The position numbers were made by a program, and so were the translations under genes. Source: Escherichia coli (GTDB lineage Bacteria; Pseudomonadota; Gammaproteobacteria; Enterobacterales; Enterobacteriaceae). From it: DNA of 19,979 nt. The notes under the pieces were generated by a model. It worked only from the letters and a program-made list of their open reading frames with translations, was not told the origin of the DNA and did no database searches. The stretch is taken from the NCBI RefSeq assembly GCF_003334315.1, contig NZ_QOWR01000070.1; one strand, 5' to 3'. How positions within the stretch are numbered: position 1 is the first letter of the stretch; every line of letters starts with the position of its first letter. Below are positions 19,596 through 19,979 of this stretch, piece after piece.

Positions 19596-19775
19596 AAGTT
19601 TCCCTCTAACCGACATTAAAATTGATGCGTAATTATTTGTTTCGCCTTAAAGAAATGCAAACAACTTCCATCAAAAAAGTGACAAAGGAAGCATCAAATG
19701 TTTTAAGTATCAATATATCAAATCAGATTTAGTGTAAATAATAGTCTCCAAAATGCGGTAAAGCACATAGAACTC

Positions 19776-19979
19776 GGTGATGCTGCCAACTTACTGATTT
19801 AGTGTATGATGGTGTTTTTGAGGTGCTCCAGTGGCTTCTGTTTCTATCAGCTGTCCCTCCTGTTCAGCTACTGACGGGGTGGTGCGTAACGGCAAAAGCA
19901 CCGCCGGACATCAGCGCTATCTCTGCTCTCACTGCCGTAAAACATGGCAACTGCAGTTCACTTACACCGCTTCTCAACC
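19776..19979 (+). mobile_element. IS1 insertion sequence, 5' portion (left inverted repeat GGTGATGCTGCCAACTTACTGAT.. starts at 19776; element runs off the window)
   Basis: Matches the IS1 left end as I recall it, including the insA start. Confidence 0.9.
19831..19979 (+). CDS. insA: IS1 InsA (3'-truncated by window edge), GTG start
   Basis: GTG-initiated frame reads [49 protein letters not shown].., the InsA zinc-finger N-terminus. Confidence 0.85.

Follow-up and report, generated by a model that had tools for sequence, protein, structure and literature searches.

An IS1 element 180 bp upstream of Escherichia coli mppA lies beyond both mapped mppA promoters

The window analyzed here, 19,979 bp of Escherichia coli DNA, is the entire draft contig QOWR01000070.1 (GCA_003334315.1), which begins at base 316 of one IS1 copy and ends at base 204 of another. 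Since both ends fall inside IS1, both are assembly breaks in a repeat, and they carry no evidence on the sequence beyond them. Toward the right-hand end lies mppA, preceded by 180 bp of native upstream DNA and then by the left part of an IS1 element. The features on which the analysis draws are given below, with negative distances counted from the mppA ATG.

1-453, plus strand: right part of the second IS1, in the same orientation as the one near mppA; it abuts xisR of the Rac prophage.
17982-19595, minus strand: mppA coding sequence, 537 aa, intact; murein tripeptide binding protein.
19596-19775, minus strand: retained native pgrR-mppA spacer, 180 bp.
19627-19661, minus strand: proximal, ancestral mppA promoter, from a consensus scan and the transcription start site (TSS) at K-12 position 1393195; -35 TTTGCA at 19661-19656, 18-bp spacer, -10 AATAAT at 19637-19632, TSS at 19627.
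About 19650-19682: window counterpart of a ~33-bp duplication found in K-12 (locus L001, ~4694-4727 and 7141-7173); it includes the ancestral mppA -35.
19682-19689 (-87 to -94), no strand: approximate boundary between ancestral and E. coli-specific DNA, from pairwise blastn and alignments.
19705-19738, minus strand: distal, E. coli-specific mppA promoter, from the TSS at K-12 position 1393117 with putative hexamers; -35 TTTACA at 19738-19733, 15-bp spacer, -10 TATATT at 19717-19712, TSS at 19705.
19726-19736, plus strand: 11-mer GATTTAGTGTA, identical to 19796-19806 in the left end (IRL) region of IS1; it sits beside the -136/-137 insertion site described below.
19767-19775, no strand: predicted 9-bp target site ATAGAACTC, of which a second copy is expected across IS1.
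19776-19979, plus strand: left part of IS1, 204 of its 768 bp, stopping at the contig end.
19776-19798, plus strand: IRL of IS1, an exact terminal repeat beginning GGTGATGCTGCCAACTTACTGAT.
19783-19810, plus strand: promoter-like site of IS1 (PIRL), CTGCCA, 16 bp, TATGAT, from a consensus scan.
19831, plus strand: GTG start of insA, ~55 bp inside the IRL, in the reading frame expected of IS1.

The mppA ATG at 19595 (MKHSVSV...) is the start annotated in K-12; the list of open reading frames also offers a longer frame. The identical MppA protein is extremely common among public assemblies, and the spacer was intact at every place among the matches listed. The K-12 gene order is ycjG, mpaA, ymjC, ymjD, ycjY, pgrR, mppA, ynaI, in agreement with the original prediction, which had placed pgrR and ycjY on the side now occupied by IS1. 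There pgrR and mppA are co-directional, not divergent, and are separated by 336 bp. The insertion point corresponds to K-12 1393046|1393047, with 156 bp separating it from the end of pgrR and 180 bp from the ATG of mppA.

The junction itself is sharp. Positions 19496-19775 of the window are identical to K-12 MG1655 at 280 of 280 positions, and agreement stops exactly at the tip of IS1, so that native homology ends at 19775 and the exact IRL begins with the next base. The IS1 portion is 99.5-100% identical to annotated IS1A/IS1B copies in complete genomes; one annotated IS1A differs by 1 mismatch over the 204 bp, and other IS1 copies match at 100%. The claim that the left end of an IS1 lies upstream of mppA, which is transcribed away from it, is borne out by the IRL at 19776 and the minus-strand position of mppA, and only the distance given, 181 bp, needs correcting by one, to the 180 bp of 19596-19775. 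In its exact IRL, its insA start, the position of PIRL and the AT-rich spacer around it, the element resembles a simple intergenic IS1A/IS1B insertion in E. coli.

Transcription start sites are available for this region from SMRT-Cappable-seq of K-12 in two kinds of medium only, M9 and rich, which recorded two monocistronic mppA (b1329) transcripts starting at 1393117 and 1393195 of NC_000913.3 and no pgrR-mppA read-through transcript among its entries (PMC6131387, Supplementary Data 2). The available supplement text of a Cappable-seq study contained no entry at these coordinates (PMC4782308). The two starts lie 110 and 32 bp upstream of the ATG, at window positions 19705 and 19627, respectively. 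A sigma-70-like site for the proximal start was found by the consensus scan in the window and K-12 alike. The hexamers assigned to the distal start come from manual reading of the sequence and are therefore putative; the TATATT -10 ends 7 nt before the -110 start, and the -35 ends at -143. The tip of IS1 lies 37 bp further upstream, some 70 bp ahead of the distal TSS, and both start sites and all -35 and -10 elements are on the mppA side of -180. The expectation that the native regulatory context of mppA had probably been replaced is thus not supported, both mapped starts having been retained with their -35 and -10 elements.

A promoter newly created by IS1 for mppA, which had also been suggested, fared no better. 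The consensus scan of the minus strand at the junction gave no promoter-like site, and the promoter and insA of IS1 lie on the opposite, plus strand and point away from mppA. IS1 reportedly creates hybrid promoters (described by Prentki et al. in 1986), and the present arrangement is similar to these in that an IS1 end faces the gene start with an outward -35-like TTGGCA 8 bp from its tip. Unlike in such promoters, the flank GAGTTCTATGTGCTT offers no acceptable -10 at 16-18 bp, where manual reading found no TAnnnT. Genes and operons activated by insertion sequences include acrEF, by IS1 or IS2, and bgl; mppA differs from these in having two intact promoters downstream of the element, and no sign of mppA silencing was found here.

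The depth of conservation of this upstream DNA was followed in a scan for MppA using one genome per species, which yielded 80 loci. A pgrR gene upstream of mppA was present only in one E. coli-like Escherichia, and the other loci showed no pgrR-like upstream match. Among the seven non-E. coli loci for which upstream genes were listed, mppA is divergent from mpaA at a distance of ~182 bp in E. albertii, another Escherichia, two Citrobacter and three other genera (Enterobacter cloacae, Klebsiella pneumoniae and Kluyvera). Other genes lie upstream of mppA in Salmonella enterica subsp. arizonae. A short upstream region is evidently enough outside E. coli, because mpaA lies only ~182 bp from mppA there.

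Homology of the E. coli upstream region to other species stops at -87 to -94. Within the conserved part, TTTGCA and GAAACAAATAAT are invariant in 10 of 10 aligned Enterobacteriaceae sequences; they form the -35 and -10 elements of the promoter at -32, which is invariant from Escherichia through Klebsiella and Kluyvera. The distal promoter region lacks a homologue in E. albertii, in Citrobacter and in the other genera compared. From about -90 upward, a ~2.4-kb block comprising ymjC-ymjD-ycjY-pgrR is E. coli-specific and inserted between mpaA and mppA. In K-12, it is flanked by the ~33-bp direct duplication (TCACTTTTTTG..GGAAGTTGTTTGCATTT), of which E. albertii has a single copy. On these sequence comparisons, the -110 promoter is a lineage-specific addition to mppA. 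As the upstream homology ends near -90, IS1 lies in lineage-specific DNA, ~90 bp past the conserved part. Comparison with IS-free genomes, proposed as the means to define what the element displaced, did identify the displaced DNA, and this was limited to the E. coli-specific sequence upstream of -180.

The exact junction is rare. An 80-bp probe spanning it had no exact match in 5,426 complete E. coli genomes, its sole near match being an IS1 located 6 bp away, and no exact match was present among the GTDB representative genomes. The original prediction had named an ancestral arrangement shared by a large clade as the observation that would speak against it, and nothing of this kind was seen among the complete genomes. 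In the closest complete relative, LCP22S3_I2, which differs by 8 SNPs in 19.3 kb, the 336-bp spacer is intact. Since no complete genome has the junction and the spacer of the closest relative is intact, the insertion is recent.

Insertions of IS1 nearby are less rare. In 72 of the 5,426 complete genomes, the element occupies ~23 other positions over ~0.9 kb of DNA ahead of mppA, in the orientation seen in the window in 47 genomes and in the opposite one in 25; positions were mapped on fetched representatives and, for genomes that were not fetched, estimated from match spans. In the fetched representatives, the positions within the spacer are -124, -136, -137, -161, -174, -198, -221, -227, -252 and -334. 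About a dozen further IS1 positions interrupt pgrR. The -124 insertion belongs to a large ETEC O6:H16 group. All 12 of the 12 spacer insertions examined (13 loci) consist of a full 768-bp IS1 with duplications of 8-9 bp and an intact adjoining pgrR, and mppA is intact at all of them except in GF66.2. In this genome (locus L012, 1123-2569), a prophage has truncated mppA to a 66-bp remnant beside the prophage integrase, a natural loss of mppA, and IS1 lies at -221. The insertions at -124 and -136/-137 remove the distal -35; no spacer insertion is nearer to mppA than -124, and the ancestral promoter is therefore spared by all of them. The site CAGATTTA(G) at -136/-137 has been used at least three times, in both orientations. 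A bias in the orientation of IS1 relative to mppA was considered and rejected, as both orientations occur, even at a single site (-137). The 11-bp match between the DNA beside this site and IS1 is marginally unusual, with 42 of 2000 shuffles attaining 11 bp.

Two geometry-matched control probes gave far fewer insertions, with 5 genomes (~3 events) for smrA-abgR and 0 for ynaJ-ynaI against the 47 genomes above, a comparison of genome counts regardless of phylogeny and with two controls only. With the controls so far below, the region is a relative IS1 hot spot. AT content is 65-69% in the spacer and lower elsewhere, at 51% over the window as a whole, 58-60% in the control spacers and 53% in pgrR, and AT-richness is the simplest explanation of the clustering within the spacer. 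As pgrR is not AT-rich, its many hits suggest that cells can do without it or that losing it is at times advantageous.

Taken together, we consider it likely that IS1 entered the AT-rich, non-coding pgrR-mppA spacer by simple transposition, in a recent event that is specific to this clone and near-neutral for mppA. A simple insertion is also the most likely structure by analogy with the twelve neighbouring spacer insertions, whose 8-9 bp duplications lead us to predict a copy of ATAGAACTC on the far side. The full arrangement would then comprise a complete IS1, a 9-bp duplication and pgrR beyond it, with essentially unchanged mppA expression. The far side is expected to read ...GGAGTCATTACC + ATAGAACTC + CGAACACTACGTTCGG... 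followed by an intact pgrR, and a contig carrying it should show ...ATCAATAAGTTGGAGTCATTACC, then ATAGAACTC CGAACACTACGTTCGGGC, then pgrR. Such a partner contig was not found in searches of the GTDB representatives or with MppA, the junction ORF and the InsB fragment. With IS1 at -180 and its IRL toward mppA, the transposase promoter fires away from the gene; ~777 bp would be added between pgrR and mppA, any read-through from pgrR would be blocked, and the DNA beyond -70 relative to the distal start would be moved away; regulatory sites may lie upstream of -180. As the insertion spares both mppA promoters and the conserved region to about -90, we expect mppA expression to change little or not at all. 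The element is a standard IS1 at a new but unremarkable site, and apart from the absence of the -180 site from the complete genomes, it does not differ in kind from simple IS1 insertions. With mppA and both promoters intact, a change in murein-tripeptide uptake should not be assumed from the sequence. Modest uses of the analysis are the distinction between an ancestral -32 promoter across Enterobacteriaceae and a -110 promoter confined to E. coli within the ~2.4-kb block, and the finding that IS1 accumulates in the region far more than at two local controls, with about a dozen of the insertions lying within pgrR.

A measurable effect of IS1 on mppA expression, and hence on murein-tripeptide uptake and perhaps on antibiotic tolerance, seems unlikely to us but has several points in its favor. 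Expression could rise through relieved silencing or outward transcription, or fall through loss of an activator site or of pgrR read-through, or through InsA or IHF acting at the IRL near the distal promoter. Operons that are silenced, acrEF among them, can be activated by IS1, and loss of mppA reportedly raised multidrug resistance (Li and Park, 1999). The end of IS1 is just 37 bp from the distal -35, yet both core promoters are intact, no hybrid promoter was detected, the IS1 promoter is directed away, and the DNA displaced is unconserved outside E. coli. The clustering of insertions in 47 genomes, against 5 and 0 at the matched controls, could be taken as a sign of an effect, but is explicable by the AT-richness of the spacer relative to the window together with its tolerance of insertions. 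Both mppA and pgrR are named, without details, as mutated loci in ampicillin-evolved wild-type E. coli in the available part of one report (PMC12710744), whereas the K-12 transcript data, with monocistronic mppA transcripts only, argue against a contribution from pgrR read-through (PMC6131387). More speculative still is the idea that the pgrR-mppA region is a selected, not merely permissive, target of IS1, with the -180 insertion as a milder member of the series, and we give it little credence. If it held, pgrR knock-outs would derepress the ycjY-mpaA operon, and loss of the distal promoter at -124 and -136/-137 would adjust the recycling of peptidoglycan peptides, with beta-lactams or gut colonisation as possible selective pressures.

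Two further readings concern the structure of the junction instead of its effect. IS1 could mark the breakpoint of a rearrangement (a deletion, an inversion or recombination between IS1 copies), with pgrR or more missing or relocated; we judge this quite improbable, and it is kept as a rival because the lineage shows an IS1-adjacent 5.6-kb Rac deletion relative to its closest relative at the opposite end of the contig. Because the contig breaks off within IS1, the adjacency of pgrR is not visible, and one complete genome, 2017.17.01CC, has an IS1 without duplication beside a truncated pgrR; against this stand the simple structure, with duplications and an intact pgrR, of all twelve spacer insertions in complete genomes and the native sequence that continues unchanged up to the exact IS1 terminus. 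It is very improbable indeed that the junction arose during assembly, through fusion of a collapsed IS1 repeat to the upstream DNA of mppA in a chimeric contig end. This is a short-read draft contig with repeats at both ends, and the same truncated, 145-aa InsB fragment starts many unrelated contigs across many assemblies, but the break falls exactly at the first IRL base, as real transposition would give, and complete genomes carry genuine insertions at distances of 6 bp and 18 bp. The identical contig was also recovered in 2 samples, and its rare IntR variant (K191N) was found only on five contigs of 10-20 kb. A search with the predicted 32-aa junction ORF found no record. The reading we prefer remains a simple, near-neutral insertion.

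The two IS1 copies of the window are direct repeats around 19.3 kb extending from xisR to mppA, which resembles a Tn9-type composite transposon. Unlike in such a transposon, the copies arose separately, as LCP22S3_I2 has the Rac-side IS1 and not the mppA-side one, and the enclosed segment is chromosomal backbone, syntenic and at its usual place. The bracketed segment includes fnr, ogt, abgRABT, dgcM, zntB and dbpA and could in principle be deleted or amplified by recombination between the IS1 copies. At 453|454, directly beside the Rac-side IS1, the 5.6 kb of Rac prophage missing relative to LCP22S3_I2 (locus L015, 4454-10050) carries sieB, kilR, ydaE, racC, recE, recT, ralR and rcbA.

The literature on mppA and pgrR makes a selective reading of the insertion cluster conceivable and has no direct bearing on the -180 site. 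A transposon screen placed mppA among the peptide-transport genes required for gut colonisation (bioRxiv 10.64898/2026.06.25.730905), and MppA/Opp take part in peptidoglycan recycling in LB and at entry into stationary phase (PMC10622912). PgrR binds and represses its own promoter (PMC10505187); none of the reports covered here places a PgrR site in the spacer between pgrR and mppA. A promoter in the ycjY/pgrR spacer is listed by the RpoD SELEX paper, in which mppA is not mentioned. Two apparent leads were discarded. A CRP ChIP site labeled "ycjZ/mppA" in ETEC H10407 (PMC4287617) corresponds to CGTGAACCGGGTCACA at window positions 9418-9433, in the abgR-abgA spacer and not near mppA, and the label appears to be a name mix-up between two LysR-type regulators. 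The gene called "pgrR" that IS1R brackets in OXA-244 elements (PMC10370041) is unrelated, being a truncated gene resembling dmlR.

No RNA family was found by Rfam over 19300-19979. In some genomes, PGAP annotates a 75-bp pseudogene fragment of "epoxyqueuosine reductase QueH" in the spacer, from -165 to -239 (locus L008, 2761-2835), and the IS1 of the window would fall within it; an NCBIfam scan of the 41-aa peptide of this putative relic (DADFDTENWFERAKPERSVRCSMCF) gave no match. Elsewhere in the window, at 16657-16899, the ynaJ-ynaI region has no IS5, and K-12 MG1655 has IS5F (insH4) there; by this comparison, IS5F between ynaJ and ynaI is probably K-12-specific relative to the window strain and its relatives.
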